Source of the DNA: Lytechinus pictus
Lineage: Eukaryota
Direction of reading: 5' to 3'
Length of the DNA: 64,000 nt
Assembly (NCBI RefSeq): GCF_037042905.1
Contig: NC_087252.1
Span: 6,884,001-6,948,000, forward strand
Shown here: positions 5,187 to 58,400 of the stretch, piece by piece
Numbering within the stretch: position 1 is the stretch's first letter
Layout of the letters: each line of letters starts with the position of its first letter
Program-made: the position numbers and the translations under genes
The notes under the pieces: model-generated
The model's input: the letters and a program-made list of their open reading frames with translations, nothing else
Database searches by the model: none
What the model was told of the DNA's origin: nothing

Positions 5187-5459
5187 TTAGTTGTTCATAT
5201 GTCACTGCTGCACTAAGTGATGTATTTCCAAGGTAATTACCAGCCATACACGTGTACTCTGTTCCAGCTTCAGGATTTGAAACAGTGACATCCTTTACAT
5301 TATTCATTGATTCATGTATCAGGGTACCATTAGAGAATATATAGAAGTTTCTCATTGTTGGAAGAGGTTCATTCTGTGCAGTACATGTCACTCTGATTCT
5401 GTCTGTTCCCTCTGTTACATAATCAGCAGTGACAGTAGTACTAGCGGAAGATGGAGAGG
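5187..5459 (-). CDS. Copy A third Ig domain exon (intact); gene continues beyond the left edge
   Basis: 273 nt, open; RIRVTCTAQNEPLP...GTEYTCMAGNYLG; donor gtaaga. Confidence 0.9.
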
Positions 5460-7655
5460 CTATAGGTTGGAAAAGAAAAAAACTATTACAATGAAATAAT
5501 AAATAACAGAAAGCTGCCTTCCAATTAATATATCATTGTATAGTGAAATCTAGTACCAGCTGTCACTTAAATCAGGAGAAATCCCAATACACGAACAAAT
5601 AGAGGTATCCATTCCATATAAAGTGGTTTTAGAGGAAAGGGAAAAAAAATCAGACGAGTAGATAGGAGAACGTTTTTAGAAAAAAGGACAAACAATTAGA
5701 ATGTTATGAAGATTTGGTAATCACTATCCCCATGGATACTACGACCCGAATGGGGGCTTACATTGACGAGTGGATACCATGCGCGACCAAAAAACACGTA
5801 AAAATTATGTCTTTTTCAAGATAGGGCACGTTAATAAGGGTGTCAAAAACACTAACATTTTCGCTAGGAAAGCTACGTGTTTAGGGTCAAATTTGCGATG
5901 GTATAAAAAATTACGACTAAAAGGTTTTACAAAGGGTGTACTTTTTGCCCCAAGAGTCAACACTACAGTGCCGGCCGCAGGAAACGTCACGCCCGAGCAC
6001 GCAAACACCCTAGGGGGCTTTTGCGTCTAACCGAGGGTATTCAAGGGGAGCCCCCTAGGGTGTTTAGCCGCGCCCGCAGTTTCCTGCGTGCTATATAATA
6101 TTGGCCGTGCCCGCACTTATCCTCGGGTACCCTATGGTACGTACATTGCATTATGTTTACATGTGCATGTACTTTGGTTATGTTGTGATAGACCATTATA
6201 TTTTTATACTAGCGTGATCAGAATCTATTCTAGATTTTTTTTTTTTTTTAGATGTTATGTGTTTTCTTTTCTTTCATTTTTTCATTTCTGTTTTCCCTTT
6301 TAATTCTTTTCCCTTATTCCCTCTTTCCTTTCTTCCTTCCTTCATGTTTTCTTCTGTCTTTGTTTCTTTCAAATAATGAAGGAATTCTTTTTCTTTCTTT
6401 CTTTCTCTTTTCCTCCATTTTTCTTACTTTTCTCTTTTCTCTCCTTATGTTTTTTCTTTCACACATTTATTCATCTTCCCTTCCTTTATATTAATTCTTT
6501 CTTTCTTTATTCATTTCAAGTAATGACGGAAACTGTTATCTGTCTTTTATTCTTTCTTTCATCCTTTTATTCAAACTTTTTTCCTTTTAATTTTTCCTTA
6601 TTTTTTTCTTTCCTCTCAATTCATTTCTTGTTTCCTCATTTGTTTTCTCTTTTGTTTCTTCCGCTTACCCTCCCTTCCCCTTTCTTAATATATTTTGTTA
6701 ACAAGTCTAACATTGTGTAGCCTTTTTGTTGATTTTTTGGCCTGGCTCGGTCGATCCGATTGTACATAGTGCTTTGTCGATTGTCCCGTATTTAATTTTG
6801 TGAAATCTGGTCACCCTTGCTGGAACATCGAATTTATTGTTTTTCATTTACCGCAATGAATCTAATCAATTAATCTAATTTGATGCATTAGGTAAACTTA
6901 TTTTCCTTACGCCTTACGTGGGAGGCATACATGTATCATACAAACTTGTTAAAAAAAATAGGACACAATTGTGATTTAATGTCATGGAGATCAATTCTTT
7001 ATCTTTTTTTTTTCTCTCCAAACGTACCCATTCCTCTCCCTTCAGCGTGAACTTTACACCTTGAACCTTTAACCTTGAAGAATAATCCCTTTCAGCAGCT
7101 TCAAAGCTATCCCGGGATGAAAACATTCTGTGTATCAGTGCGAGGTGCCATGGTGAAGTGCCATCTCCTTATAATGAACAGTGTAAGAACTAGAAAACAT
7201 TTGAAATATTCTTCCTTGAGTTTTAACGGGGTGCACAGGGTGGAATCAGGAAAGAAGAAAGAAAGGCATATCAACAACAAAAAATAATTAAAATAGACAA
7301 AAGATTTTAATAAGCAGACATGATTTTTTTTTTAAATCAAAATTGACAAGTTATTAACAGAGTGAATGTTAACAAACATTAATGACAAACAGAATTATGA
7401 ATATCAAGGGCATTTGTGAATTCTCATTATGTAAAAGCAAACGTGCGGTCAATATTGGGATCGTCAATTCGTTGACATAGTTGATAAAACCCTAATAAAG
7501 GGAATGAAAGGTACGTGAAAACAAATACTAGTATGACCAAGATCATACAAAGTAGACGTGCAAAAAGCGAACACCATAAAAACTGGTTGTGCTCATCGAT
7601 TTGTTATTTGGTTCTTTTGTTATTGTCAACAGTCTGGTAGTCTTGCTCCCCGCCC

Positions 7656-8715
7656 GCGCGTTTCCGTTTTACACCCTGGCGAAGGCATTTTCCGGAAAAA
7701 TAGCCACAAAGCGACTAGTGAAGAGTCTACGTCTACGTTTGTTTACATAATCAGCTGGGCGCGCGATCCAAAAGTCCGCACCGAAGATATCCGCAGAACA
7801 TACGTGCAAATGCAGCTGAGTTTATAGACCAAAAGCTTCAGTCTCTGTATTTTGGTTGTTCCGCTGAACTATATACGTTGGCTCCATGATTTTTTTTTTT
7901 ACTTTATCGCACATGATCGTTTATATGAATGAAAACGAATAATAGCTAAAATATTGAAAAATAAAACACATAATTACTTTTTTTCATATTATATCTATCC
8001 TTATATCTATCATATCTGTCTATCCACTATCTATATTATAAATCAATCTATGGAACTACATGATATATCTATCTGTTAATTTGTCTATCTACTCTGTCTC
8101 TCTCATTCTCTCTCTACGCTCTCTACCTACCTATCTATCTGTCTATCTATTTATCCATCTAACATCCATCTCTCAAATTCTCTATCTATCCATCTGTCTC
8201 TCTTTTATTTCTCTCTATCCATCTATTAATCTACTCGTGCAATATCAACACTGCTTCGACTTCCTTCGGGAGTCTATTTCCTCAGCTCTACTTTTCCCGT
8301 TTTGTGCTCGATTCGATTCAATTACTACTTTATTTACTTGTTACCATTGTTAAATGTCTTGTATTGCATAATGAGTTTTTTTCTGAAGGTTGCCTCCTAT
8401 TCTCTTTCAAATTCCACCTCAGTTGCTTTCCCTTCTCTTTGTCTTATCCCAATTTCTTTCCCTTCTCTCACCTCTTTCCTCTTCTCTCTCCTCTTTCTTC
8501 TTAATCTTTCATTCCGCTTTTTTCTTCTTTGGTGACACTTTGTAGTACTTTTGGCCTTTTGTATTTATTTATGATACATTTCTTTTTCATTTGTATGAAT
8601 TTGTATTGTATTTGATATTTATTTATAATGTTTACTTTATATTTTGTATGTAAACATTCACTTATTTCAGTCTTTGACTGCTTGTGATTTTATTTTGATA
8701 GTTTTTATTGCAATA

Positions 8716-8760
<45 letters not shown>

Positions 8761-9424: not shown

Positions 9425-9477
<53 letters not shown>

Positions 9478-9522
9478 ATATCCATCTCTCTGTCTTACTC
9501 TCTCTCTCTCTCACTCTCTACT

Positions 9523-9565
<43 letters not shown>

Positions 9566-13992: not shown

Positions 13993-14322
13993 TATGAATA
14001 TCTAAATCTCTTAATTCCTGTCTTTCCAGCTCTGTGAGCTGATATCCAGTAGACCGACATTCCAAAGTTTGTAAATGATTTTCTTGAGTTGCTGGGAATG
14101 TGAACACACTCTTTGTATTAGATAATGGTGGATTAGATGGTGTTGGTGGGTGTGTTTGCATTATCGTCTTCCCATCACCATTAGTCTGTGCAACATTATT
14201 CAGATACCATGTGATGTTAACTGGTGGTTTGCTTCCAACAACTTCACACGTTGCTTCATACATGTCCTCTCCACTACTACTTACAAAACTTGTTACAGTT
14301 GGTCCAGCTAAACTCCCAGGAG
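13993..14322 (-). CDS. Copy A Ig C2-type domain exon
   Basis: 330 nt, open, phase 1-1; paralogue of 49238-49567. Confidence 0.9.
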
Positions 14323-18521: not shown

Positions 18522-18830
18522 CTTCCACCACAAAGTCCAAACTACCATCAGTACCCGGAATGTCACATCTATAGACCCCATCATCTGTTACTTCTGCACT
18601 AGAAATTTTCATCGCTGATTGTGTATCTGTCAGGGTAGTTACATCAAAGTTACTAAACTTTTCATCACCAGTGGCAGGGGCCGTTCCAGCAAAGATAATT
18701 TCACCTGTACTGTCATCTGCCCATATAATTAAACTTGCTGTTCCACCTGTAATATCACATGTGAGTGTGACATCAGTCCCAGCTGCTGCTGGCGAATTAC
18801 CGGTTACAGTTGCTGTTTGCCCATTGGTTC
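18522..18830 (-). CDS. Copy A Ig V-type domain exon
   Basis: GTNGQTATVTGNSPAAAGTDVTLTCDITGGTASLIIWADDSTGEIIFAGTAPATGDEKFSNFDVTTLTDTQSAMKISSAEVTDDGVYRCDIPGTDGSLDFVVE; open, 309 nt. Missed by the ORF track. Confidence 0.92.
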
Positions 18831-19672: not shown

Positions 19673-19754
19673 CAACAACAAGCATCAGAACTGAAAATGC
19701 ATGCCATGAAACCAGGCCAGCCATCACCTTGGACATGTCAGTGGTGAACAGCAT
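19673..19754 (-). CDS. Copy A signal-peptide exon
   Basis: MLFTTDMSKVMAGLVSWHAFSVLMLVV(G), 82 nt, donor G|gtaatt. Confidence 0.8.
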
Positions 19755-20578: not shown

Positions 20579-20880
20579 CTTATACAGTTATCACCCATTC
20601 AACTCGTTTGTATCCTACTTCACTTATTTGGTCTGTTTTGTGAGCACAGTGCAGTTCGACGAGCACTTAATTCATTTTGTCAATGTAAACAAAATTTTAT
20701 AAAGTTCCTGCTTTAAAAGTTGAATTTGCAGTCAGTATAATATATACGTTTTTCATGAAGAGGGCGTAACAAGAAACATAGTCGGGGTTATATTGAGCGA
20801 ATGCAGCGTGGAAAACCTTTGGTGTTTCTAGTCAAGATTTCCTTGCAGTCTGATTTTCCTGTGAGGGATCTTAATAATCG
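20579..20880 (-). promoter_or_regulatory. Copy A probable non-coding first exon and proximal promoter
   Basis: Donor AG|gtgagt at 20579/20578; homologous to 58120-58400. Confidence 0.55.
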
Positions 20881-23735: not shown

Positions 23736-25005
23736 CCTGAATGATATATTTCGTTAAAAGTTGTGTGTTTTTTTAGACAGTGTCCCATTTATTTAACACT
23801 AATACATGTATTTGTTGCTCACTCTTGGATTTATTTTGTCCTCTTTCTCATTGTACATAATACTGTTTGGGTCTTCGGCGGCCATTTTGAATATCAAAAT
23901 ACAGCATTTATTTTATACATACATTTTAGTGCTTACTCTTGTGATTTTTCTGGTCCCCATTGCCAATCTGTTTGGGCCAATGCACGGCTATTTTAAATAT
24001 AAAGATACAGCAACTTTCCCTTATACATGACATAATAAATTATATATCTCGTAAGTAATAGTGATTTTCACCCATTTCTTCGTTCACAGATCATATTTAC
24101 TCCTTAAGTGCTCATTTTCGTGAAAATTAGTTTTCCCTATTCTCATTGTACATAATAGAGTAGCCTATGTCTAAGGCGGCATTTTTAAATATCAATGAAA
24201 TAAATATGTTGCCAAAATATTTTTTTTCAGAGAGTATTTCACTCCTGCCACATAGATTTATGCAATTTTGTGATTTTCATGGGAAATTTACATATTTTGG
24301 CAGCCATATTGTATTTTGCCAATTTGCGTAAAATGCTCAACGTTACACGAGTGAAATCATTCAGATTTATAATCTGCACCCTCAAATTGACAAGAAACCA
24401 TAAAGAATATTATAAATATATGAAACAAGGTCGCGCCTCTTCTAACCTGGACTATATGTAGTATGAATAAAAGGTAAAGTAATTATGTATACATAGACCC
24501 TTTACATGTAAAACTTTGTATATTTTTCTTCATCTTATGCTATTGTAACGGTCAACGAAACCTACCCAACCGATTGTATGCAAATTGAAATAAGGTCAAT
24601 CAGGGTCCCGTAAATCAAAGCTTAGCAATAATCGTATAATTTTTTAAACGATTAATTGAACTGACTATAATGTACAAGTACGATCAAACATGAAAATCAA
24701 GAGTACGATTAATTGTTTACCTTTGTGTTACGGGACCTTGGATTGGGTTCGGTGAGGGGTAAAATAGCAGACTACTACTAGGAAAATTATATTACATTTG
24801 TATATGCCTTCTGATACCAAATATACCACTGCATAGCATAATATATTTTAAAAGAAGTCAAACTATAAATTTAATCTAAATTAATGGACCAATGATATCC
24901 AGAAAAAAATGAAATGCGTGGGTTAATTACACTTAAATCTAACACGTATGCATTGATCTTCCATATAAAACACATATTGTGAGGCATTGTTTTATGCTCT
25001 TAGCA

Positions 25006-25065
25006 TCACATCTCCAGAGTAGAAGCATACAACCCTTCATCCAAGTCATTCAGAGACAGGTAACT
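25006..25065 (-). CDS. Copy B terminal coding exon (Tyr-containing tail)
   Basis: tttcacag|AGTTAC...ATGTGA = SYLSLNDLDEGLYASTLEM*. Confidence 0.75.
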   Translation of the reverse strand, partial: SYLSLNDLDEGLYASTLEM

Positions 25066-37585: not shown

Positions 37586-37616
<31 letters not shown>

Positions 37617-40600
37617 GGGGAGTGAGTGAGAGCTTGAGGAAAAAGGGAGGTGTATGACTTATTATTTCTGAATATCGCGATTTCTGTTTATTCATGGGAT
37701 TGTAATAAAAGGATAAACTTAACAAGTTCTCGTTATTATAATTTTTTATTTGATTTACTGATCAGAACATGATATAAATGAAATCATGAAGACTGTACGT
37801 TCTCGACAGTTTTATTGACGTTTTCCAACCAAAACTACACTTTAATGACTGCAAACACCTTCATTTTCACACGCTCGCAACTATGGACACATTATACATG
37901 TAATTGAGAGTAGTGTCATTTTCAAAACCTTTCTTAGCTGCAAGGAATACTGAATCTCATTTCCACAATGTGCATCTGAATGCACAATGCCTGTGTTTCT
38001 AACATGTACCCAAATTACCAAATTTAAAGAACACATGTTAAGATCTAATGAATCAGCAAAATAATCCACATTCTATCATGAGCAGCAGGCATAACAGCCT
38101 ATATACTCTTCAATACTTCAATTACAGTTTGTCGAAAGAAATAACACAAAAAAAATAATATATAGAATTGTAACTCTGGTAAATATATCCAAAATATTAA
38201 ATTAACGCATCGTGCTCTCATTTCTTTTACGAGATATCTCCCCCCCCCCCCCCGAGATATGCTTCATGTTTACAATTTAAAAAAGGCGTATAAATGTCCC
38301 CTTTCCATGTCAATAACAGCTCGTGCTTTGTGCTCGCATTATAAATTCAGTGAGATGCGTATTGGGTTTCATGAATTTGTAACTATATTATTGCTGGTAT
38401 ATATATTATTGTCTTTTAAAAATAACATTATTTGTTTAGACGTAATGAGAGAGATACATACATATATTCATTTATTATAATATATTTATATTGTCGCTAT
38501 TGCACAGAATAGAACAAAAATACAACCGAAGTCTATTTTTATAGTAACTCACCAGTAGCGTAATGAGCCAACAACAAAAAATGGAGGGGGCGAGACAAGG
38601 ATGACATTTATTTTCCTTTCCTTTATTCTTGTTTTTTCATTGGTGGGGAGAATGGGGGGATCCGTGACCCCTAGCACGCCCCTCCCCCATCTGTACGCAA
38701 GTGATGATCATACTTTCGTTTGAACCAAATTGAAGGAAAAAAAGTGCAAGGGTAGATAAGGCCGAAGACGTAAATAAAAATTATTGATAAAAATATTAAT
38801 AATTATAATACTGATAAATATACAATAAATCAAGCGGTCACCAATAAAAATAAACAACGTGAAAGAACAAAACGAGAAAGAGAGAGAGAGAGAGAGCCCG
38901 CGCGAATGTATGGTGTATAAGTTGCTGGAAAGCAGAGGAGATATTGTGTCCAGCACCCCCCCCCCCTCCCCAAATTCTCTCCCCGCTCAAGACCGGAGTG
39001 AAACCAATGATAATAATATATGAACAAAAATCCAGATTCACAATTTCAATGGGGAGTGTGTCATTCCCCTTCTCCGTTACAATTTGTCAAGTGGCAGCGG
39101 CAGGGAGAACAATTTGTTTTGTTTTTTTAAGCAGAAAGCTGTGATGATAGGGGGAGAATAAAATAAATAAAACATTAACGAATAACAAGAACAAAACAAC
39201 GACAAAACAATTTGTATCAGGATGAATTTCTTATCATTTAACATAGACCAACTTGGAGAAATAAGATGTTCATGCAATTGTCGTATAATCGGAGCAGATG
39301 TCGGCGGAGCAAATATCGGCGGAGCAATTTTCGTATAATCGGAGCAATTTTCGGCGGAGCAAATATCGGCGGAGCAATTGTCGCGGAGCAATTGTCGTAT
39401 AATCGGAGCAGATGTCGGCGGAGCAATTTTCGGCGGAGCAGATGTCGGCGGAGCAGATGTCGGCGGAGCAGATGTCGGCGGAGCACATGTCGGCGGAGCA
39501 AATATCGGCGGAGCAAATATCGGCGGAGCAAGTGTCGACGGAGCACATATCGGCGGAGCAAGTGTCGACGGAGCAACTGTCGGCGGAGCAATTGTCCGGA
39601 GCAATTGTCGGCGGAGCAACTGTCTTATTTTGCGTAGCAATTGTCGGCGGAGCAGATGTCGGCGGAGCAATTGTCGGGTCACCGAATATCCAATACGTGA
39701 AACCAGTTGTCAATTGAAATATTCTTTATTGTAGGAGGTGAACATTTTAATGAACATTATTGCATATAATAAAATACTAAGTTACAAGTGGGAATAACAA
39801 AATCATCAATTAACCCACTGAATATTCATGAAGAAATGCAAAAAAAAAAAATTTATAGTGATATAATACAAATCTTTAAAATGTCATAACCTTTTTCCCC
39901 TTCATAGAATTGGTAATGCTTTGTTTGATTTTCCTTTATCTATTGAAATAATATTATTTTCCGCCTGGAGTACCCGTTTAATAGTAGTGGTATACATCTT
40001 ATATAGAGTTCCCTCGCACCACTTAGAATAAAGATAAGGTAAACACCTGCTGATGCTTCAAATATAATTTTCACTTATCCTTTTTATGTACTTTTGACCT
40101 ATCGCCATAGAGACCTAATTGTGAATTATCAGGATGATAACGACATAGTATGAATGAGGTACTTTTTTTAAACAGAACATTAAATCAAAGTAGTTGTATG
40201 AATGCATAATGTTTAATAGAAAAAAAAATGTTGACAATAAAATACACGTTTATTTGAATAAATAATATTTAGATGGAGTTTAAGATTTAATGATACACAG
40301 CTAATATGCAGAATCAATAGAAAAGTTAGAAAATTTCCTTCTTAAGTAACTTCTAACCTCGATTCCCACTTTGAATCATCTCATAAGCCACGTTATCATT
40401 CACCTCCTGTGGTATATTTATTTCATTGCTGTAAAAAATATATAAATTGAATAGAGTTTATTTTATCTCATGAGAAATTATATTTTTTTGTTTACATCCA
40501 CTCAAAGGCATTTCATGGCACATATATATCAGCAACAATCACAATGAGGGAAGTGTTATATTATTCAATGAGTATTACCCATTATTAAAGCGTTCCTAAG

Positions 40601-43600
40601 AATGGGATTTAAAAAAAAAGTCTCAAAGAACGCCTTTATTATTTGAAGGATTTGGGTTTTCCCCTATTGGAAATAAAATCAAATATATATCTGTTGAAAT
40701 GAATTTATCCTTTGTCATCCTATTTCCGTCAGTTAATGTGTATGTATCTCAGTAAAATTTACGCGTGAACGTTTGAATTTACGTTAATACTAGCTTGTGT
40801 GTTGAGGCGAAGTGTGTATGGTTAGAAATGTGAGTGTGTTCCGTTCTTTTCAATGGTATAGGATGTTGTAAAGTTTGGTATAAATATGTGTGGTTATTTA
40901 GTATGGGCTGTTACAGTATCGGGTTTGAGGGTGTGCGCGAGTGGATGAATGTGTGGTGAGTGAGTGCAAGGTTGTACGGGCGTATTCGTAAGGTGAGTTA
41001 GAAGAGTGTGTGCATGCACGGGATGCGAGTTGTGTGTCAGAGGACGGGAGTGTTAGAGAGGGAGTGATGTGTTCGAGTGTGAGAGAGTTGTGTGTGTATG
41101 ATAGGGAGCAAATGTGAAAGTGCAGGCAGTGTCTGTAAAAGTGTGTGTATCTTTAAAGATAAGTGTGAGTGCGTGGGTGTGTGTGAGATTATCTGAGTGG
41201 GTGTCTGGGTGAGTGTGCGTGTTTTTTTTCATGTGGGGGAGAGAAAATGGTGTGCAAAATTTGTGGGTTTGGTTTAATGGAGATATGTACCTATTATAGA
41301 TTAATTGTAGTCATATAAAATGTGAGCGTGGGTGTTGCCTTCTAGGGTGTGTGTGTATGTGTGTCCGACAAAATATTTTTCCTTCTACTTACCTCTTATT
41401 ATTCTTTGACTCATGGAACTCTAGTGGATAAATATATAAATATACACGTTTACAATAGAGTGATGAAGGAAAAAATGTAGCCATATGTAAACTGAGATGG
41501 CAAAATAAATTCAAGAGAGCACTCGAGGTCAAGATGCTCAAGATTTGATATACCTTTGCCATCAACTTTCAGTTTTATCTCCCCTTTATAAAACATTAAC
41601 GTATCGATGATTATTTAATATCCCACCTACTTGAATTATGGTATAGTAATTCTAACACGATCTTACTCAGCGGAAATATGCTCAGATCTAGTTAGATAAA
41701 CGACAAGACACGATATGAGTAGCGGGGGGGGGAACAATGTTGCTTTAATGTGTATTTTCATGATCATCAGAAAAAAATATATTCCAACTTTGCACCTTTA
41801 CAAATATTAGACGAGGAACACCTTTAAAGTTGCACCTTTGAACATGTTCCTCTTGTGTTGGAGTTATACTCTTTTAAATTAAACAAGGGTTAACTTATTA
41901 CATTACATTACTTCTTCTTTTACATTCACATTTACTCTATGTGAATATAACTACTCAGTAATCACCTGGTTTGGTTTTTCCCCTAAGAAGAATGAATTGA
42001 ACAATGTTGACGATGATAGAAGCTACTAAGAGGATGGCTAAAATAGCTATTCCAGCAGATGCTCCAGAACTCAAACCAGACGGTGCACAAGGACATGGTG
42101 TAGGCTCGGGTGTAGTCTCTGGTTAGTGAGAGAGTTTTATATCAGATGTTAATATAGATTGTGGAATTTATTTCATATGAATTAATTCGTAAACCTGTAA
42201 AATCCGATTGATCATAGATTATATTTCAACCATAATCATAGATTATACTACAAACATACAGCAAGAGGTAGAAGGTCCATGCTGCAACCCAGTTTTCGGG
42301 ACGACATTCTATAATAAAACCCGTGCAGTATGTCAGTCATGTATGGTCTCATTTCTAAATCTAATTATATGTCCATAATTATTTTCAATCTTCAAATTTG
42401 CCGCAAAACATATAACAAAATAGTAAAATAAATCACTGTCCTAAACTGAATTTCCTTTAAAAGACAAGAAGAAAAACGTCTCGGCCCGGATTCACAAGGA
42501 GGAATGACTAAGTTCTATAGAGCTAGATAATAACTTAGGGCTGAGCTAAATTCTAGGGGGTTAGAATTTGTATTTCACAAAGAAGGGTAATGTTAACCCA
42601 ATAGTTAAAAAGGTAGTGAATTAAATATAATTAAATATAACAATACATGGGTTTACAACTAATCAGTTGCATACGTAGTCGACAACTGTTAAAATGCACC
42701 ATATACGGGTAATGGGCTACATTTTTATTTTACAAAGTTTCAAAGTGGCGAAGATGAAAGTCTAATTTTGAAGAATGTGATATCATATCTACAATAATTT
42801 CCTACTAAATCTGCATCTCTCCCACTTGGGTTTTGCGCCACCCCCATTATTACATATATTTCACAGTATTTTAGTCATTCATTGTTCATGTTCAAACATT
42901 AAATTAATGTGTTTGTGCTGGTGATGTGGTGTACTAAAGAGGTGCCTCGGCCTTTTGTCGGTATGTTTGAGGGAGGGTGTCTTTGAACTTTTTGAAGATA
43001 TTCCTTTTAACGAAAAAGTATTTCACTAACTTATGGCAGTATGATGGGTTTGATAGACATGCAGTATAATGACTTACTGAAAACATTTACGATAAATATA
43101 AATGAAATTCTAATGATAACATTAAAAATGATAATAGAGATAGCATTAATAATTATTGTTATAATACGAACAATAGAAATAATGATCATAAATAATATTT
43201 ACAATAATAATAATGATCACAATGATAATAACGGTGATAATAAAAATAACATTAAATGATAATAAAACTAACAATGATCAGAATAATAATTATAATAATG
43301 ACAATATTATCATATAATGTAAATACTACTAATAATAATTGGTATTTCGTAGCACCATTATCCTATAAATATTCTATTCGGCTGCGCAGTGTTATTTTTG
43401 TCATTATAAGATAGAAAAGGGACTTCCCAAAAAATATCCACCACCGAAAGAGGAACCTTATAAATAACATTTTGAAAGAAATGAATTTACTCTTCGTCTG
43501 GAGCTCAGGAAAACAATAGTAAACGGACTTTGGACCCTAATTATATCTTGAATACCAAAGCGAATTCGCATGATGTGTGCAAATAAATATCATATTGACA

Positions 43601-46600: not shown

Positions 46601-49600
46601 ACATGAATAAACTTTTTACTTATTATTATTTCGTATTCACGACGGGTGTTATTTGTGAAGGTGTATTAGGCATGTTAGGTGCATATTAATAAAAACGATA
46701 TTACCAAAAATGTGTTTGAAAAATCAAACTGACATTGTCACCAAGAATAAACAATAAATAACCCAAATACATACAAAAGAATGATAAAAGCACAAAATTG
46801 GATGAAGGAAAAGAAGATTATCAAAGGTCAACATACCCTCCGTTGATTTCGAGGTGTGATCGTCTATACCAGTTGGCGTTCCTTTCAAGTGAGTTTGATC
46901 AATGAAGAAAACAAATATTTGAAAGTGTTACAGTATATCTGCTAAACCTGGGTGAAAATTGATAAATTTTATCACATAAAATCAAACTAAAATTTTTTTC
47001 CCCTGATGGGTTCATGATTGGTTTATGATATTGTTAGTTTTTCATTATATTGTTTGCATGTGGTCTTTGTTGGCCTAATAAAACAAATAAATACAAAAAC
47101 ATATCTAAGTAAAGGTGGAAAATATAACCCTGGCTTACATCAGTAATTACATTTGCAATGTAGTGTCTAAAACAAAGGTTAATACACCATAATGTTTTAC
47201 GTAGATTGACTGACAACGTTATCATGGTTATGATTCATAGTCGCTGGTATATTGTGCAGGATTCTTTCATATTAATCCTAAATAAAGTATTGGTTTTGTC
47301 TTGATACCGTTTTGATATTCAAGTGTGTAATATCCATTGAGTAATTATTTGGAGAAGGTGAAAAAGGATATGACCATCTGCACGATGTAACAAATAAAAT
47401 GTTGCATGTAATTCACAATTTCGTGCAAATATTATATTATAAAATGATTAAAGTAGGCCTACATACCAGCTGTCGGGGGAAGACTGGCCGTTCCTGATAT
47501 TGAAAACAACAAAAATAATTTAAAAAATAGTTTTAAAAAATAGATGAATATTTTTTTTACATGAAAATATAAATAAATCTCCATCGTCTCCCCGTGAATG
47601 TAAGATTATTGACCAGGAATTCGTACACCGCACAGCCTTCCAATATGCCGCCATCGGGTCTTTTTTGGCCACATTGCTCACTGAGTTTGAGGAAGGTTGA
47701 CATGGTTTGTAGAAAGCCACAATCAAAACTTCCATGTTGATTTTTAAATGGCAATTTCTCATTTTTATTAGAAAATAGATAACGAATGAAAAAAATTGGG
47801 ATAGGGTGAATTTGATTGCTTTTTCTTCGCATTGTATATATGTACTAGCTTTTAAACAAAATGAGTCTCATGAATGCTTGTTATTGTCATTATTGTGTTT
47901 ATCTCTTTTGTACCCTTTTTTTTTTTTAGGGGGGGCGAGGGGTCTATACAAAGGCAGTTTCCCCTACAAACATGACATACACATACAAATCACTTATACA
48001 CTTTACTGCATAGCCAAAAACATATTTACGAGCACACACAAGCGTGCCCCCACCCCGGCAAACCCTCACACACACGCACGTGCGCACACACAACCTTGCA
48101 CTAAAAGCTGAATTCTGGATATAAAAGAATCGACAGGAGGAAGGGGCTTTGGGGCTATAAGAAAATATAAAACCTGCGGGGTCACAAGAAAATCCTAAAC
48201 AAGAACAAACTTATCACATGGAAGGGTTGAAATCTTGAGGTTTCCAAAAGCGACAAGAAAGAAGATTTTTTTAAGGTAAAGATATATATATATAAGAATC
48301 AGAATTTTGAAGGTATATTTTCTTACTTATTGGGTCATATGTAACTGCTGCACTAAGTGATGTATTTCCAAGGTAATTACCAGCCATACACGTGTACTCT
48401 GTTCCAGCTTCAGGATTTGATACAGTGTACTCCTTCACACTATTCAGTGATTCATGTATCAGGGTTCCATTAGAGAATATATAGTAGTTTCTCATTGTTG
48501 GAGTAGGTTCATTCTGTGAAGTTCATGTTACTCTGATCCTATCTGTTCCCTCTGTTACATAATCAGCAGTGACAGTAGTACCAGCTGTAGATGGAGAGGC
48601 TAGGTTGGGAAAAGAAAAAGTATATTGAATAGATTAAAATCAGCCATGTTTTGTATTGTTAAATTCAATATCATAAGGGTGTCAAAGGTATTTCCCCTAA
48701 TAGTATGTTTATCTATCCTTGTATATGCACAAAGTAATGATAGGAAGAAAACAAAATTTCACTTCTGTTTTATTGGACATTGTACTCACACCGTGGTTTT
48801 CTCTTATAAAAAATAATAATGAGATTCTGAACAGGTAGCTGCCTTCCAGTTTATATATCATTGTATATCAGATCCATCAGCTTTTATTTAAATAAGGAAG
48901 ATCTCACCATACGAACAAATAGGCTGCCATGTTGTTCAGAGGGTAATCCAGTCCAAATTAAGTACTTTCAGGGAAAATTAAAAATCAGACGAGTAGATAG
49001 TAGGATGAAAGTAATGGAGACTTGAGATTGCAGCAATGGTGATGTCATAGTTATAGACAATGCCATGGCAACTCTTCCATTCTCTCCAATACATAAAAAG
49101 AAATTAAGGTTTTACTTCACATTATATTTTTATGTAATTCGGACATAAACAATACGCTACTTATGTCATATCATGGTCACTGTCCTAAGTAGCATGTAAA
49201 GTGTAGGCCTTCTTTAAAAATTACTATTCCTACTTACTATGAGTATCTAAATCTCTTGATTCCTGTCTTTCCAGCTCTGTAAGCTGATATCCAGTAGCCC
49301 GACATTCCAAAGTCTGTAAATGATTTTCTTGAGTTGCTGGGAATGTGAACACACTCTTCGTATTAGATAATGGTGGATTAGATGGTTCTGTTGGGTGTGT
49401 TTCAACTATTGTCTTCCCATTGCCATTAGTCTGTTCAGTTTCATTCAGATACCATGTGATGTTAACGGGTGGTTTGCTTCCAACAACTTCACACGTTGCT
49501 TCATACATATCCTCTCCACTACTACTTACAAAACTTCTTACAGTTGGTCCAGTTAAAGTTCCTGGAGCTAAATTAAGAAGTATAAATCAGAAAAAAATAT

Positions 49601-52600: not shown

Positions 52601-55600
52601 CAGTCCGAGTAAAATTAAATGAATGAACAGAGATACAATGGAACCTGATTTTTTTCCTCATTCAAAATTAAAAAAATCTTGAGAATATATTAATGAGGTT
52701 ATTTTGCATAATTTAGAAATAGGGGCGACAGCCCGGCGAGGGAATTGGTATTTAATAATTAATAATTTACTATCGGACCAACTAATGTAGATAGTGAAGG
52801 GGCTTGGTGGATTCCATAACTTCTGAGGACTAAGGAGAAAATGGGAAAAGGGAAGAAAACTAAAGGAAAGGGTGAATTATATTATAGTTTTCTCAAATAA
52901 GGTGTCGAAATCTAGAACACAAAATTATTTTTTTTAATAAACTTTCATTGCAGTACCACTTCAATCATGTAAAGATTACTTTGTTGCAGTACATTATATT
53001 GTTGACCACTTTATTATAACCATGGATCCTCCATGTTATAACCTTGCTACCGTTACAGTTACGAATATAGCAATGTCTTTCCTCTGTTATGTATACTACA
53101 AAAATAAAGACTGTTATAATATTGACTGAACACTTTATTATAATCCTGCTTCTGTAACCTTTCTAATCTATTTGCATGTGTATGTATGAACATGTCTTTA
53201 TTTTTGTAATACCAATGCAAAATACATCAATCATGTAAAGAGGTTTGTGCAGTTCTCATTCATTCAAATCACTTTGCTAGAACAATGTCACTGTTAAATT
53301 TACGGATAGTATTTCATAATTGCTAGCATTTTAAAATGTCAAATCATTTCAAATCATTTTCAATGTATTTGTTGTCTTTGTAACAATATGTTTACACGCA
53401 GACATGCAAGAGACGACTCTGTCTTACTTAAACTTTTAGGCCCTATCTATTCACACGAGTATTTTAGTAGTGTAATTCACAACTAATTTCTTATCTGTTA
53501 ATTCGTTACTATTGCTCTAATTTACTTTTCTCAATTGTATTATTTCTCTCTCTTTTTTTTCCCCTTTTCTCCTTTTTTTCTCACGCATTCTATGATTCAT
53601 GGATCTTATACATGATTTTATTTCGAGATCCAATCTATATCTTAATTTCAGTTGCTATTTTTTAATTTGTTTTATTTTCCCAATAAATTTCGTTATCAAA
53701 TCGCTTAGGTTCTTAATGTTGCTGATGTTCATTTGTATAAGGTTGTTGTGACAGTAGTTGAACATTATGTTTGTTTTTGTTTTTTCTTATGTCATCGTAA
53801 ATTGACTTTCCTTCAGTTGGTATTCGGTCAGAATGTATGAAATATCGGAACCGAATATAGGCATGGGACTTATCATAAAATAAAAGGTTTACTCACTGTG
53901 TACTATATCAGACCCCTCCCCACACAAACACAAACACTTACACAACACACACAGACACGCACACCCTCACACATACAAACAGATATGAATTCCTCGTTAC
54001 GGGCCTGAAATGTGTTTGAATATATCCATAAAAATTTGGTTATTCACTACTTTTAATGTTGCATTAACTGCAAGGATCACAGTAAGAACAATTCCAAGCA
54101 CTTAATAGCTTGTCCAATTTCACACCAGATGTGAACATCAAAATGAACTTTCACTATCCGGTGTCAGTCAATGGCCAGCCGCGCGGGATACCGTGTTGTC
54201 GATAACTGCATATAATGTCAGGCAGTACAAATTATACAAGATTAATTCATGTAAATTATCTTCAAACATTTGGGGTTTCTCTTGACATTATAAAATTGAA
54301 TGGTATACAAATAATGAATGTTTCTGAGAGCAATGGACACAATACTTCATGAGGTGAAAGATGAAATGATCCATTCAACGAGGCGTAGCCGAGTTGAATG
54401 GATCATACATTTCATATTTCACCGAATGAAGTATTGTGTCCATTGCACGAATGATAAGAACATTCATTATTTGGTTTATATGACACCTAAAATAGATTCT
54501 TTTTCATATGGAATTTATGAATTTCGATGCAAAATATGCTCATGCAGTGCGAGCTCGGTCTGTTGATTGTCGCGTACAGTATACAACCTATCACTGCACA
54601 TGCTGCAGCAGTCTCGTTGCGCCTGTGCAATGGACAAAATCGTATGGATCCAAAATTGCACGATGAATGGATCCAAAATTGCACGGTTGATGACGTCATT
54701 GTAAAATGGGCTGAATGGTCGATATCAAACAACCAATCAAATGACAAGGATCTATCTAAGTGTCATATAAAATTTGATAAGTAACTCAAAACATGCTGTG
54801 CATTTTACTCACCTTCCACCACAAAGTCCATACTACCATCAGTACCCGCAATATCACATCGATAAATCCCATCATCTGTTACTTCTACACTAGAAATGGT
54901 CATCACTGAATGTGTATCTGTTAATGATGTTACATCAAAGTTACTGAAATTTTCATCAACAGTGTTGCGGGTCGTTCCAACAAAGATAATTTGTTCTGTA
55001 CTGTCATCTACCCATATAATTAAAGGTGCTGTTCCACCTGAAATATCACATGTGAGTGTGACATCAGTCCCAGCTGCTGCTGGTGAAGTACCGGTTATAG
55101 TTGCTGTTTGCCCATTGGTTCCTGGAATAAATCGGGTGAGAAATAAACAATTAATCAAGATGTTATGGTATATGAGGTAAAGTACTAAAATCGCTTTAGA
55201 ATACACAACATGTAGCCTCTTACAAAGTTTTGATTTAAAGCTTTGGTTGCCAAGTATTAACTTGACAGCTCGAAAGCCTTTCCCTTGCAAAAAACTGACC
55301 TAACCAAGTAGTAAAATTGACCGTTAGTTAAATGCAATTGTTCTTATATATTCGAATTACTAAAAAGTATTTTTTTTTTCAGATTATATTTTAAAGATTT
55401 ATATGCCAAAGATTATTGTTTAGGCGATAGAGCTGCCTAGCTAAAAACTAAACATGTTGTGTCTCACGGATCTAATCACATATATTTTGAACTAATCCCT
55501 CATTTTGATTAGTTGCTGATCAGTTAATCAACGACTCAGATATAAGAATGAAATCACCTCCTTTCGATCACTCCTAATCCTTTAACTGACTTCAAGATAA

Positions 55601-55686
55601 TTACCCATTACAAGCAGCAGAACAGCAAATCCACGTAATGAAACAAGGCCAGCCATCGTCATGGTCATATGTATGGTAAACAACAT
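25006..55686 (-). CDS. Copy B: 15-exon Ig(V-C2-C2)-TM-tyrosine pseudokinase receptor gene, about 723 aa if the two coding lesions are ignored; possibly a young pseudogene
   Basis: Exons 55686-55605, 55121-54813, 49567-49238, 48599-48327, 42118-41966, 41420-41393, 40428-40358, 29750-29580, 29157-29053, 28411-28230, 27814-27710, 27405-27300, 26563-26467, 25610-25512, 25065-25006. All introns are GT-AG with matching phases except a 1-nt shortfall in the penultimate exon; in-frame TGA at 48523-48525. Confidence 0.85.
25512..25610 (-). CDS. Copy B kinase exon, subdomain XI; TAA at 25523-25525 beside an A10 run
   Basis: YAVMTGCWDKEPPNRSNFDNILKSMERI*; good donor CAC|gtaaga lies 11 nt after the stop; exon is one base short of phase 0. 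Confidence 0.85.
26467..26563 (-). CDS. Copy B kinase exon, subdomain X
   Basis: GARPYPNMTFSTVQTEVDNGYQMPRPRPCAQEV; phase 1-2. Confidence 0.9.
27300..27405 (-). CDS. Copy B kinase exon, subdomains VIII-IX
   Basis: [35 protein letters not shown]; tyrosine-kinase P.RW..PE and D.WSFG..LWE motifs. Confidence 0.92.
27710..27814 (-). CDS. Copy B kinase exon, subdomains VIb-VII
   Basis: IIHGALCAHNVLLGERKQCKISDYGLSSSIFGDVA; canonical HRDLAARN reads HGALCAHN, DFG reads DYG; donor gtaagt. Confidence 0.92.
28230..28411 (-). CDS. Copy B kinase exon, subdomains V-VIa with short kinase insert
   Basis: GSILYEFISGGTLLTHLQTSGVQSQPTYSNLKPSGVRIDEGTLLYLAWQVAKGMQFLASKK; phase 1-0. Confidence 0.9.
28427..28654. 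mobile_element. TA-flanked MITE
   Basis: TA|CACATCAAAAACTG ... CAGTTTTTACAGTG|TA with internal GGTGTT/AACACC repeats. Confidence 0.7.
29053..29157 (-). CDS. Copy B kinase exon, subdomains III-IV
   Basis: DRVTKSLQFLQAIKVLYELSDQPNIVKCLGYCKDQ; 105 nt, phase 1-1; matches the F.xE...L....HPNIV.LLG.C pattern with Ala for Glu. Donor gtccgt is weak. Confidence 0.85.
29580..29750 (-). CDS. Copy B kinase exon, subdomains I-II
   Basis: AYSTLRLGPTHSFVISRENVTFFTRLGSIGRGDFGEVWKGDLRSKQNHLDVAIRQIP; GxGxFGxV loop, VAIK changed to VAIR. Confidence 0.9.
30369..35795. mobile_element. 5.4-kb TIR element with 4-bp TSD inserted in the left foldback arm
   Basis: TIR CGTCCCT.TTT..ACGAAGTGACGGAT; TSD ACTT at 30365-30368 and 35796-35799; subterminal ACGAAGTGACGG copies near 30640, 30672, 30724, 35520, 35570, 35592. 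Confidence 0.88.
33700..34573 (-). pseudogene. Decayed spliced gene inside the 5.4-kb element, product unknown
   Basis: ttttcag|ATG...CAAG|gtgag (34573-34485) joins in phase to cttag|G (33945): LDPGANMLVRWVIDNSLS..., later TSSENSDCDSDDETLSTLVK; several stops and a frameshift. Confidence 0.45.
36214..36365. mobile_element. MITE with CAGGGGCCGCGG termini (hAT-like)
   Basis: CAGGGGCCGCGGAAC ... GCTCCGCGGCCCCTG. Confidence 0.7.
40358..40428 (-). CDS. Copy B juxtamembrane exon with VAYEMI motif
   Basis: ttttttacag|C...CGAG|gttaga; 71 nt, phase 2-1; SNEINIPQEVNDNVAYEMIQSGNR. Confidence 0.75.
41393..41420 (-). CDS. Copy B juxtamembrane micro-exon
   Basis: ccactag|AGTTCCATGAGTCAAAGAATAATAAGAG|gtaagt; 28 nt, phase 1-2, EFHESKNNK; bridges the phases of its neighbours. 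Confidence 0.7.
41966..42118 (-). CDS. Copy B stalk plus transmembrane exon
   Basis: accag|AG..., KTTPEPTPCPCAPSGLSSGASAGIAILAILLVASIIVNIVQFILLRGKTKP; hydrophobic run followed by basic stop-transfer residues; 153 nt, phase 1-1. Not in the ORF track. Confidence 0.88.
43090..43340. repeat. Degenerate (AAT)n microsatellite
   Basis: Directly visible. Confidence 0.85.
44315..45134. mobile_element. Tc1/mariner-type MITE with long TIRs, specific to copy B
   Basis: TA|CAGTGCGTCCCA ... TGGGACGCACTG|TA; arms inverted over roughly 300 bp; empty site in copy A near 635. Confidence 0.9.
48327..48599 (-). CDS. Copy B third Ig domain exon, with in-frame TGA replacing the first Cys
   Basis: 273 nt, phase 1-1; RIRVT*TSQNEPTP...GTEYTCMAGNYLG; copy A has TGT at this codon. 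Confidence 0.88.
49238..49567 (-). CDS. Copy B Ig C2-type (CD80/nectin-like) domain exon
   Basis: 330 nt, phase 1-1; ATCEVVGSKPPVNITWYLN...SVFTFPATQENHLQTLEC; donor gtaagt. Confidence 0.9.
49779..49903 (-). pseudogene. Relic duplicate of the C2 exon 5' part (pseudo-exon); homologue at about 14540-14654
   Basis: ttctctag|CT... AAPSMTLNVISTLVNHEDMYEGTCDAVD vs real exon APGTLTGPTVRSFVSSSGEDMYEATCEVVG; ends in TGA. Confidence 0.65.
51275..51998 (-). mobile_element. 5'-truncated CR1/L2/Crack-type LINE, specific to copy B
   Basis: ORF2 end ..LQLGEFMYRSEKGLLP..HCHNTR..SVRYQG..W..L..S..FK; 3' stem-loops and (AAATG)n tail; TSD TATGTT at 51269-51274 and 51999-52004. Confidence 0.88.
54303..54770. mobile_element. 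Interspersed repeat insertion specific to copy B, family not assigned
   Basis: Absent at the matching site ATTGAATGG/AATTTGACAAG near 18478; internal palindrome ATGATCCATTCAAC..GTTGAATGGATCAT. Confidence 0.7.
54813..55121 (-). CDS. Copy B Ig V-type domain exon
   Basis: ttccag|GA...GAAG|gtgagt, 309 nt; VTLTC, IIW and DDGIYRC (D-x-G-x-Y-x-C) V-set motifs. Confidence 0.92.
55605..55686 (-). CDS. Copy B signal-peptide exon
   Basis: MLFTIHMTMTMAGLVSLRGFAVLLLVM(G), 82 nt, phase-1 donor G|gtaa; homologous to 19673-19754. Confidence 0.8.
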
Positions 55687-55711
55687 GTGGTTTTCTTGCT
55701 CATGGAATGTT

Positions 55712-56934: not shown

Positions 56935-58119
56935 AGGTTTTTACTTCAGATGGTTACCAAGTCAAGTTCATCTCCAAGATCTAGTTTTTCAAAGTAAGGA
57001 TATACAGTATATTAAAAACATTTATGATAGATTACCAATGATCACTAATTGATTTGTTGAAAATTGCATTGGAATCGCTGAAAGAAAAAAAAATTCACGA
57101 TCTGGTTGGCAATTTTTACATTTTGTACATGGTTTGGGAAAAAAGAGGAGAGCTGAAGCCCACCTAGCACCCCCCCCCCTGTTTCTGCATCCCCTGCACT
57201 TTTAAAACAAAGTAGTCAAATGGAACACACAAAAGTATACATTTCTAATACTAAGTGGGCTCTACCTTTCTCCAAGATCGCCATGCTCTATTGATCAGTA
57301 TTAGAGGTTCTCAGCTTTTCTACTCCCGAGATGTTAATCCTAATCAACCAGAAATTGAAAGTTGTTAAGTACAAGTTTCGTATACTCTGGTTTAACTTCT
57401 AGGAGGGTTTTGAATAATCGCCATCTCAGCAACCTTGGGCAGCATATCTGATTAACGTAATAACTAAATAGCATGATACCACTATCTATAACACTGTAGC
57501 TCTTGACTGAAAAAAAATTAAAATAAAGCAAAATATAATGTCATGTATGGCATTTGGGGGTACACGATTTTGTACGTCAGCTATTGTTTCATGTAGTCTT
57601 TGCCATCCCTTTTCAGTGCAGGTTAATCGTGCCAAACACATTAACATCTCGTTTACCATTGACATTTTTTTTCTCAAAGCGGGCCCTATGCGCACAAAAT
57701 AAATTGAGTGATTGGATATCAGTAGGTGAAAGTTCCTTTAGTACAGACCAAAATCATTATACCTGAAATTGGTATCCTTTTGCATTGGAAGAGGATTTAT
57801 TTCCAACAACAAAAAATAACGTAGTCTCGGCATAACTTCATAGAATTTGTTCAGTGCAGTATTTGTGATATCATCCACATCATATCTGTTTAAGCATGGC
57901 CCTGAGAAGCGATGCCGCACCATATAGGCAACAACACATGGAAATCAGGTTGGTATACTAAAATGTAGAAATTTTACCAAAATCACCTAAATGTTGTTAA
58001 TTTTGGAGCCTTACACCCTCTTTTTCGCTTGTAATTTTTTTCTGGGCCCAATCACAATAAACAATAAGTTCATAACACATTTTACCACACTGAACATAAT
58101 AGTTCATTAAACAACTCAC

Positions 58120-58400
58120 CTTATCCAGTTACCAACGATACATTTTGTTTGTATCCGTCTTGACCTATTTGGTATGTTTGGCGAGCACAGTGCAGCTCTA
58201 CGACCTCTGAATTCCTTTTGTCAATGTAAACAAATTTTTCTCGTGTTCCTGCTTTCAAAGTTGAGTCTCCAGTCAGTATATATCCGTTTGTCATGTTATA
58301 AAGAGGGCGTTACAACAGATAAAGTCGGGGTTATAATTGAGCACGATGCAGCCTAGAAAGTAAAGAAACTTTAATTTTCTTGTGAGGGATGTCAATAGTC
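58120..58400 (-). promoter_or_regulatory. Copy B probable non-coding first exon and proximal promoter
   Basis: Donor AG|gtgagt at 58120/58119; block homologous to 20579-20880 with shared TTTTGTCAATGTAAACAA and AAGAGGGCGT. Confidence 0.55.

Follow-up and report, generated by a model that had tools for sequence, protein, structure and literature searches.

The window analyzed here, a 64,000-nt stretch of Lytechinus pictus DNA (NC_087252.1, positions 6,884,001 to 6,948,000), carries two copies of a gene that encodes three immunoglobulin (Ig) domains, a transmembrane (TM) helix and a degenerate kinase. Both copies lie on the minus strand in head-to-tail order; copy A is intact and copy B is broken. 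They align over long stretches with 70-96% DNA identity at an offset of 35-44 kb, which bears out an earlier interpretation of this DNA from its letters alone (the sequence-only reading) that two head-to-tail paralogues are present.

Of copy A, the window includes only the exons for the ectodomain and the stalk, all on the minus strand. These are a signal-peptide exon (19673..19754; 100% identity to residues 1-28 of P0011), a V-type Ig domain 1 (18522..18830), Ig domain 2 (13993..14322), an open Ig domain 3 (5187..5459; 100% to P0011 residues 242-331) and stalk exon 1 (3251..3277). The gene then runs on to the left of the window, where the TM exon and the first five kinase exons are located just beyond the border (locus L047). 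Inside its exons, copy A is 100% identical to the database protein P0011 (XP_063959537.1, 732 aa). A remnant of stalk exon 2 (2454..2498, minus strand) has its acceptor AG replaced and lacks a counterpart in P0011. An open frame at 19630-19535 resembles a signal peptide, and was set aside as unused by P0011.

Copy B comprises 17 coding exons that extend from 55686 to 25006, again on the minus strand. The ectodomain is encoded by a signal-peptide exon of phase 1 (55605..55686; 86% to P0001 residues 1-28), a V-type Ig domain 1 (54813..55121), Ig domain 2, assigned by Pfam to a CD80-like C2-set (49238..49567), and Ig domain 3 (48327..48599). There follow stalk exon 1 (47467..47493; homologous to copy A 3277-3251, with the end at 47467 set by eye), stalk exon 2 (46837..46881; homologous to a stalk exon of P0012) and an exon for the stalk end, a CPC motif and the TM helix (41966..42118; 90% to P0012). 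Of the two juxtamembrane exons (41393..41420 and 40358..40428), the second holds VAYEMI, the first half of an ITAM. The kinase is spread over seven exons: exon 1 with the second ITAM half YSTL, the Gly loop and VAIR (29580..29750); exon 2 with the alpha-C region (29053..29157); exon 3 with the kinase insert and its YSNL (28230..28411); exon 4 with the catalytic loop HGALCAHN and DYG (27710..27814); exon 5 with SPE and alpha-F (27300..27405); exon 6, which ends at a phase-2 intron in helix H, as placed by predicted structure (26467..26563); and exon 7 (25512..25610). The tail exon (25003..25065) encodes YLSL...LYAST and a stop. All exons have AG/GT ends, and phases are compatible as far as the last kinase exon. 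A segment at 40114-40074 looked plausible as a terminal exon, and was rejected as missing from models.

The proposed order of signal peptide, V, Ig2, Ig3, stalk, TM, tyrosines, dead kinase and tail stands, but the open 723-aa protein that went with it does not, and the sequence-only reading overlooked two lesions in copy B, a stop codon within the frame of Ig3 and a frameshift close to the end. The first lesion is a substitution that creates a TGA at codon 266 (48525-48523), a position that holds the first Ig3 Cys in the five other close copies. The second lies in an A-run of the penultimate coding exon (25610-25512), which has 99 nt where the frame requires 100; an early TAA results, about 24 codons ahead of the normal end. 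This second lesion could be an assembly error. Read through, copy B amounts to about 748 codons if the two stalk exons are counted and to about 724 if they are left out; the lower figure is near the 723 aa of the sequence-only reading. As part of the explanation favored below, which as a whole we hold with modest confidence, copy B would be a family member that died only recently.

Farther upstream of copy B, an AG...GT-bounded block without an open frame (58121..58352, minus strand) shows 72% identity to 20407-21009, which lies upstream of copy A, and 75% to a block that precedes a V remnant in locus L037. It is putatively a non-coding 5' exon or a conserved upstream element.

Transcript evidence comes from three contig sets (a small share, from one study) that aligned to 29590-49589 at 82% likeness. 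The pieces cover the Ig2 and Ig3 exons, end at or near exon borders and differ from copy B at 13-33 positions, which suggests that they are spliced transcripts of paralogues. They show Cys at the position of the copy B stop, yet they are not copy B. Among the 15 joints listed of 64, none connects exons of this gene, whether Ig to kinase or otherwise, and the TM exon bin is without contig cover; this result is neutral on linkage.

The two copies belong to a much larger collection. Nine kinase modules (counted by kinase exon 3) and seven three-Ig ectodomains, rather than only two copies, occupy about 580 kb at C8:6.66-7.24 Mb, where intact, truncated and broken copies are mixed. The part from C8:6.948 to 7.24 Mb was covered by search matches and small loci, so that copies G and F are described incompletely. 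Copies B and I contain stops, copy H is a relic, and copies E, F and J are annotated without a kinase; the database models of E and J end ahead of it. Many copies with gain and loss agree with the tandem birth-and-death family that had been proposed. Relatives were found solely in sea urchins (Lytechinus, Strongylocentrotus and Diadema). Full-length Ig-TM-kinase models come from three species (P0011, P0017, P0026, P0030); a fourth contributes shorter Ig-kinase models (P0020, P0024). Splice phases join cleanly across the linker exons in copies B and J. In the Diadema relative P0070 the family's ectodomain is followed by a tail that lacks a kinase and has two ITIM-type motifs, and the family's pseudokinase is also found behind sushi (P0028) and other ectodomains.

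The motifs of the kinase have degenerated, with VAIK changed to VAIR, HRD to HGA and DFG to DYG. The beta-3 Lys is replaced by Arg in 27/27 clade rows covering the site, and the catalytic Asp, kept in 242/255 other kinases, is absent in 28/28. Retained are the DFG Asp (28/28 covering rows), the Gly loop and the catalytic-loop Asn. Alignment with Tie2 indicates that the alpha-C Glu is lost, and the activation loop, which contains no Tyr, falls 5-8 residues short of its length in four active relatives. With both the beta-3 Lys and the catalytic Asp gone, the domain qualifies as a pseudokinase by the sequence definition, under which loss of any one of beta-3 Lys, catalytic Asp and DFG Asp suffices. 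It is under purifying selection (dN/dS 0.29, 95% 0.17-0.52, five copies) and, together with the losses in all covering rows, this supports the earlier claim of a conserved dead kinase. The dead motifs and the ITAM are common to Diadema and Lytechinus at about 53% identity. A first predicted structure folded only the ectodomain (kinase pLDDT <50); for the kinase of the relative P0202, a deeper alignment gave pLDDT 84 and pTM 0.85.

The best PDB matches of the kinase are Tie2, RET and FGFR, with Tie2 the best structural match for the P0202 model. A long D-E kinase insert and the phase-2 intron at helix H, the two features that define the longDE clade of receptor tyrosine kinases (RTKs), are shared with its Tie/RET/FGFR/Cad96Ca group (PMC8662651, in part). 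In a 48-row tree, however, the sea-urchin kinases form their own clade (support 99) outside FGFR, RET and PDGFR/VEGFR. FGFR identity was rejected on this placement and on the missing HRD, VAVK and activation-loop tyrosines of active FGFR, and forced union with two FGFR rows gave a borderline p-AU of 0.047. FGFR likewise has three extracellular Ig domains, whereas the best fold matches here are of nectin/SIRP type. RET was rejected by forced union (p-AU 0.016) and because its ectodomain is cadherin-like and the one here is Ig only. Tie is not sister in the tree, and forced union with the single Tie row was not rejected (p-AU 0.21); for the Ig-EGF-FN3 ectodomain of Tie, Pfam reports no EGF or FN3 in P0001 or P0002. 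PTK7/CCK4 differs in having seven Ig domains, a retained catalytic Asp and ALG, against three Ig domains, HGA and DYG here (PMC13259870). The absence of orthology to FGFR or RET, as had been expected, is thus supported by trees and forced-union tests, and no RTK is a clear orthologue in these trees, from which PTK7, ROR, RYK and STYK1 are absent. The automatic names of members ("FGFR-like", "Tie-like", "Cad96Ca-like", "Fer-like") are inconsistent best-hit labels, and the label "FGFR-like" on these genes misleads expression studies.

SH2-recruiting tyrosines had also been predicted, and they find support at the level of motifs. Under the pattern Yxx[IL]x6-9Yxx[LI], with the definition as given in the available part of 10.1101/2022.03.04.482883, a complete juxtamembrane ITAM precedes the kinase in 15/24 clade rows, compared with 4/184 other kinases. 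It reads YEMI-x6-YTAL in Lytechinus (tyrosines Y416 and Y426 in P0011), with the same spacing in Strongylocentrotus and x9 in Diadema. Some active invertebrate RTKs, the 4/184, likewise have paired juxtamembrane tyrosines, so the ITAM could have been inherited as a docking site. The YxN of the kinase insert and the tyrosines of the tail are similar to their counterparts in active relatives.

In the close paralogue P0001, Pfam identifies V-set/I-set, CD80-like C2-set and PK_Tyr_Ser-Thr (E 4e-66) domains; Ig domains 2 and 3 may each be of the C1, C2 or I set. The ectodomain model (Ig domains at pLDDT ~67-93) matches Necl-4, SIRP-alpha, nectin-1, CD155 and CD22. Necl-4 is the best match by VIA-align (Z 14.9, 272 aligned, rmsd 11.1), with many Ig proteins within 1-2 Z. 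Together, Pfam and the predicted fold matches uphold a nectin/SIRP-type V-C-C ectodomain. The V domain has a canonical Cys-Trp-Cys core in this sea-urchin family, and its sequence matches include NCAM, NEGR1 and Dpr/DIP. The same fold also serves adhesion and neural proteins such as SYG, Neph, Dpr/DIP and IgLON.

Variation in the V domain is concentrated on one face, which was picked after the alignment had been inspected (pN 0.155 versus 0.065 in the rest of V; permutation p 0.001, six copies). Across the family, entropy on this face is 2.02 versus 1.52 elsewhere (p 0.0016). Exposed loops vary in any Ig family. The face has a pN/pS of 1.30 (interval 0.83-1.92), which is not significantly >1, and whole-domain dN/dS >1 was seen in no domain: the three Ig exons have values of 0.69, 0.54 and 0.82 across five copies. 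The tree of the ectodomains disagrees with that of the kinases (AU p 0.001 and 0.015), with three old ectodomain lineages seated on near-identical kinases. For L. pictus proteins of a second database set, no close ectodomain was found in this genome; a control sister gene is 98% identical. The two L. pictus sets apparently have different, non-overlapping ectodomain repertoires. New here are the juxtamembrane ITAM, the one-face V variation, the tree conflict and this apparent second repertoire.

The explanation we favor, and judge to be somewhat probable, is that these genes encode a sea-urchin-specific, tandemly expanded family of diversified recognition receptors that signal via an ITAM on a pseudokinase scaffold. 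Their most likely role would be in innate immunity or in telling self from non-self, and the family is a candidate system for either. Known immune expansions in sea urchins mostly involve TLR, NLR, SRCR and Sp185/333 genes (for Sp185/333, see the review PMC3342357). The GFCC'C'' face of the V domain would bind a variable cell-surface ligand, and the clustered receptors would then have their ITAM phosphorylated by another kinase, perhaps of the Src family or a partner RTK, because the receptor's own kinase would be unable to perform this step. The phosphorylated ITAM could recruit a tandem-SH2 kinase of the Syk/Shark type; further SH2 proteins might dock at YSNL in the kinase insert and at the tyrosines of the tail, with the pseudokinase acting as a folded scaffold or as a switch between conformations. 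The signaling half would be kept uniform by unequal crossing-over or gene conversion while old ectodomain lineages persist. Counting against this explanation, L. pictus allograft rejection has been reported to proceed without specific recognition and memory (PMC3342357, in part).

A possible reading, in which we place distinctly less confidence, is that an RTK was turned into an immunoreceptor family, with a conversion-uniform signaling half and V-C-C lineages that vary between individuals, as a complex like KIR, LILR or Alr. The kinase would have died before the Diadema/Lytechinus split, and the juxtamembrane tyrosines would have become the ITAM. Kinase-less and ITIM-tailed counterparts would accompany V-C-C lineages of varying gene content. 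If true, this would give the echinoid allograft response a candidate locus that is open to testing, and the genus has classical allograft data, from L. pictus (cited in PMC3342357, in part).

The strongest competitor to diversified recognition receptors, unlikely though it is, is an adhesion or cell-identity code of the nectin/Kirrel/Dpr-DIP type. Its uses would be in the wiring of neurons, in morphogenesis, or in the interactions of gametes and larval cells, with the pseudokinase and tyrosines linking adhesion to the cytoskeleton in the manner of PTK7. In its favor, the top structural matches are adhesion molecules (Necl-4, nectins, Lutheran, SYG, Neph1), the V-domain sequence matches include NCAM, NEGR1 and Dpr/DIP, and nectin-type molecules also use the GFCC'C'' face for binding. 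Set against these points, fast gain and loss, pseudogenes and apparently differing repertoires within a species would be unusual for a developmental wiring code, the ITAM is conserved across the family, and the ITIM-tailed relative P0070 exists.

Rather improbable is that the proteins assist an active Tie/RET/Cad96Ca-group kinase as HER3-like co-receptors, or modulate it in a dominant-negative manner, during growth or wound signaling, with copy turnover largely neutral. This would suit the intact, conserved kinase fold modeled for P0202, the YxN and tail tyrosines like those of active relatives, and the reuse of the pseudokinase behind sushi and other ectodomains, but it leaves unexplained both the three old ectodomain lineages on near-identical kinases and the focus of V variation on one face.

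We give little credence to the idea that the Ig exons and the kinase exons belong, for the most part, to separate or decaying units, fused by gene prediction in an unstable duplicated segment without selected function. The stops in copies B and I, the relic H, the annotation of E, F and J without a kinase, and the lack of an Ig-to-kinase joint among the 15 listed of 64 fit it; clean splice phases in B and J, Ig-kinase models in four species (full-length in three), the kinase dN/dS of 0.29, and the motifs common to Diadema and Lytechinus argue against it. That the kinase retains low or unusual activity and phosphorylates its own ITAM is very improbable: the Gly loop, catalytic-loop Asn and DFG Asp are kept, but the domain has lost the catalytic Asp, the beta-3 Lys and, going by the alignment with Tie2, the alpha-C Glu as well, and the activation loop is short and without Tyr.

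A full-text literature search that did not extend to the sea-urchin papers of 2006 on the kinome, the immune repertoire and RTKs yielded no description of the family. Those papers may list members under Tk or Ig numbers, and their supplements are the likeliest prior mention. Sea-urchin Fgfr1, Fgfr2, Tk8/Cad96a and Tk9 are named in the accessible part of PMC8180256, and the accessible parts of PMC11999971 and PMC13519141 do not mention the family. The defined 0.6-Mb interval could be genotyped against graft outcome or infection.

Among known systems, vertebrate nectin/Necl, SIRP and CD22/CD33-type receptors have a similar three-Ig V-C-C fold, with only 13-19% identity to the models. SIRP and CD22 signal through tyrosine motifs, and to our knowledge none of these vertebrate receptors has a kinase fold. 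The eight human receptor pseudokinases are likewise single-pass proteins with a catalytically degenerate kinase that acts by docking or allostery. As tabulated, none has the VAIR / HGxLCAHN / DYG set, and they are separate genes, in contrast to the diversified tandem array of the sea urchin. The ectodomain of STYK1 is 22 residues long and that of PTK7 contains seven Ig domains, versus three here. A tandemly diversified receptor pseudokinase family would join these eight single human genes and, if the favored explanation is true, would trace a route from a growth-factor-type receptor kinase to an immunoreceptor.

Two invertebrate systems offer further parallels. The Hydractinia Alr genes are clustered IgSF genes encoding a V-set and two further Ig domains, a single TM and ITAM/ITIM tails, and they arose by ancient and recent duplications with exon shuffling (10.1101/2022.03.04.482883, in part). 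Alr V domains lack the canonical Cys pair, however, and Alr proteins have an Fn3-like fold, with no kinase domain described in the available part of that source; Alr tails are divergent whereas sea-urchin tails are conserved. Botryllus FcoR differs in its sushi domain, ITIM or hemITAM, and paired partner gene, with a kinase fold undescribed in the available part of PMC12065747, and its allorecognition role has experimental support, whereas that of the sea-urchin family is a candidate role. Like the sea-urchin family, FcoR proteins are receptors of a deuterostome invertebrate that combine one V and two C2 Ig domains with tyrosine motifs, and they undergo birth-and-death evolution with gene content varying between haplotypes (PMC12065747, in part). 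If the favored explanation is true, a clustered ITAM-bearing IgSF family would bring to sea urchins the paired-receptor recognition known from vertebrates, Botryllus and Hydractinia.

Two paralogues of the Ig-ITAM pseudokinase receptor cluster, copies A and B, occupy the minus strand of the window (G000:C8:6884001-6948000 in genome coordinates). Copy B spans 55686 to 25003 (-). Its 17 coding exons, with compatible splice sites and phases, encode in order a signal peptide, three Ig domains, a stalk, a transmembrane (TM) helix, a juxtamembrane part (two exons), the kinase (seven exons), and a tail. The sequence-only reading had assembled this copy into a continuous protein. Its domain order and splice phases hold, but the open frame does not, because there is a TGA at codon 266, where 5/5 other close copies have Cys, and kinase exon 7 is one base short. 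No database protein exceeds 91% identity to copy B over the second Ig domain (Ig2). On small counts, its kinase gives pairwise dN/dS values of ~0.5-0.65 versus 0.27 for A versus D, and shows more replacement change than the intact copies. The ectodomain of copy A lies inside the window while the gene extends further left, and its exons exactly match protein P0011, labelled Lytechinus pictus, which identifies the source of the DNA as this sea urchin.

Several repeats accompany these genes. The long intron of copy B that separates juxtamembrane from kinase exons carries three copies, in both orientations, of an element built of 15-bp tandem units (30202-30394, 35766-36070, and 39269-39696). An inverted repeat at 44290-45159, with 376-nt arms that are 82% complementary and very high contig depth, probably represents a MITE-like element; copy B has it, and the matching place in copy A does not. 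Frames at 22791-23691 and 51680-51997 (-) resemble, by eye, fragments of LINE retrotransposon ORF2, and the latter falls within a copy B-specific insertion. Arrays of ~160-bp and 42-bp repeats at 3683-4587 and 21714-21990 are intronic or intergenic.

The tandem array proposed from these two paralogues proved to be larger than the pair. Genome searches identified close copies in 6 of 9 matches for the Ig2 exon and 9 of 12 for kinase exon 3, with the two kinds of match alternating along C8:6.66-7.24 Mb. The array therefore includes at least six close Ig2 exons and at least nine close kinase exon-3 copies. The list of copies that follows draws also on 200 kb of DNA sequence and further searches, and all copy counts are lower bounds. 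Full-length copies with database models are A (P0011), C (P0001), and D (P0012). Copy J, whose ectodomain is divergent, keeps its exons open and its linker splice sites intact, and its model (P0092) ends before the kinase. In copy E, both juxtamembrane tyrosines are gone, as is the usual kinase exon 1 acceptor, and the model (P0015) contains no kinase. An in-frame AG two codons downstream from the lost acceptor (L039:6930-6975), if used, would yield a full-length form with neither ITAM tyrosine, a possible decoy. Copy F is inverted, with the ectodomain alone found (P0004); copies B and I carry stops; and copy H has a kinase together with a V remnant and a degenerate TM exon. Kinase matches also mark copy G and a fragment at 7.055 Mb, where the surrounding DNA was covered in part. 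In Ig2 of copy C (L002:1504-1845), a conserved core Trp is replaced by Cys, a change that may make the domain less stable.

Beyond the cluster, the genome contains a three-Ig gene at C8:4.11 Mb, a 70% kinase relative (contig C17), and two genes of a sister pseudokinase (C8:28.8 and 38.0 Mb). Intronless tyrosine-kinase-like stretches of 30-35% identity (G000:C11:26378881-26379687, C11:11518106-11518906, and C7:7232730-7233206) are possibly retrocopies or single-exon kinase domains. Splice phases and gene order, together with models from several species, underlie the predicted linkage of Ig to kinase exons; no transcript joining them was present among the contig joints listed.

Pfam assigns the first domain of the ectodomain to V-set/I-set and the second to CD80-like C2-set, and the three-domain structure prediction is confident. 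Top Foldseek matches include Necl-4, SIRP-alpha, nectin-1, CD155, and CD22, with a titin fragment ranking fourth, and a wide structure search gave Necl-4 a Z of 14.9, which many other Ig proteins nearly reached. These matches to a predicted structure support a V-C-C layout, not orthology. In some models, sushi repeats (Pfam PF00084) or Ig plus an FN3-like stretch (by eye) precede the same pseudokinase (P0028 and P0032 from S. purpuratus, P0019 from L. variegatus), which suggests ectodomain shuffling, or model fusion. Proteins P0078 (L. variegatus) and P0062, in which family Ig domains are tandem-doubled or fused to an unrelated secreted protein, are probably adjacent genes merged by annotation. 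A deeper-branching Diadema member (P0106, P0329) has a very short ectodomain ahead of the TM helix, a layout like that of STYK1.

Between TM helix and kinase lies YEMI-x6-YTAL, a motif split by an intron, which fits the ITAM definition applied to Hydractinia Alr proteins (10.1101/2022.03.04.482883). The pattern was searched with spacers of 6-9, a range chosen after the nine-residue spacer of Diadema was known and before the published definition was found, and it occurs in 15/24 family rows of the kinase alignments with enough upstream sequence versus 4/184 other kinases. Of the nine misses, three are models without these exons, one is the sushi-type member, and five are sister-lineage rows. 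Protein P0070 (Diadema setosum) combines the same ectodomain with a kinase-less tail bearing two ITIM-type motifs.

Relative to Tie2, the beta-3 Lys has become Arg and no alpha-C Glu remains, with HGA in place of HRD and DYG in place of DFG. Among 29 family rows, the Lys is replaced in 27/27 and the catalytic Asp in 28/28 that cover the site, whereas 242/255 other kinases keep this Asp. These replacements predict a loss of catalysis, in agreement with the earlier call of a dead kinase. The activation loop is short and without Tyr in the family, and a model of the relative P0202 predicts a tyrosine kinase fold (pLDDT 84). We assign the domain to the longDE receptor clade, as defined in PMC8662651, from its kinase insert and from the phase-2 intron at helix H.

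In kinase trees of 149 and 48 rows, which took in no PTK7, ROR, RYK, or STYK1, the pseudokinases group in a single clade with support 99, and its named members all come from sea urchins. Nor did a profile search over 1.84 billion representatives bring in a named member of another group, among 20 names checked of the best 150 listed. Forced union with Tie was not rejected. Union with RET was rejected and union with FGFR narrowly so. The slower-evolving sister pseudokinase (HGNLRASN, DYG) has one or two Ig domains (P0069, P0207, P0216, and P0217). Its two near-identical copies in this genome are L020 (C8:37.97 Mb) and L021 (C8:28.79 Mb). It is without the juxtamembrane ITAM, and both rows checked carry an ITAM-like pair within the C-terminal tail.

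At replacement sites, the Ig exons change faster than the kinase. Values of dN/dS are 0.54-0.82 for Ig exons versus 0.29 for the kinase, the latter denoting purifying selection. Changes in V concentrate on the GFCC'C'' face, as defined after viewing the alignment (p 0.001 for six copies; p 0.0016 family-wide), and the excess over synonymous change on this face is not significant (1.30, 0.83-1.92). Three old lineages stand out in the ectodomain tree, and two of these span Lytechinus and Strongylocentrotus; the kinases group by genus. For 11 proteins with both parts, the two groupings, named after the trees were known, are mutually rejected (p-AU 0.001 and 0.015). Copy A shares 91-96% identity with B, C, and D over kinase exons and introns and 80-86% around Ig2, as would be expected if the 3' halves were being homogenised.

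Eight Ig-bearing L. pictus proteins (XP_0547 accessions or nr-only) have ectodomains at most 75% identical to the six genome-matching models. When two of them were searched directly against the genome, no close set of exons emerged (the best exon reached 72% and 82%), and the one control, from the sister gene, was 98% identical. Conversely, no accession of this kind is grouped with A, C, D, E, or F in their 90% clusters. This mismatch between protein sets suggests that repertoires differ between animals, and it could also arise from assembly gaps or annotation differences.

We conclude that this is a real, sea-urchin-specific tandem family. A candidate role in immunity or self-recognition is the best reading of its function, and one we favour slightly over all others together. 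An adhesion code is a considerably less probable account, and a co-receptor role is improbable. The literature searched, whose coverage excludes key 2006 sea-urchin papers, gave no description of a diversified, tyrosine-motif IgSF receptor combined with a receptor pseudokinase. As candidate recognition receptors, these proteins join two kinds of receptor already known: IgSF receptors that are diversified and bear tyrosine motifs, such as Alr, FcoR, and SIRP, and receptor pseudokinases.
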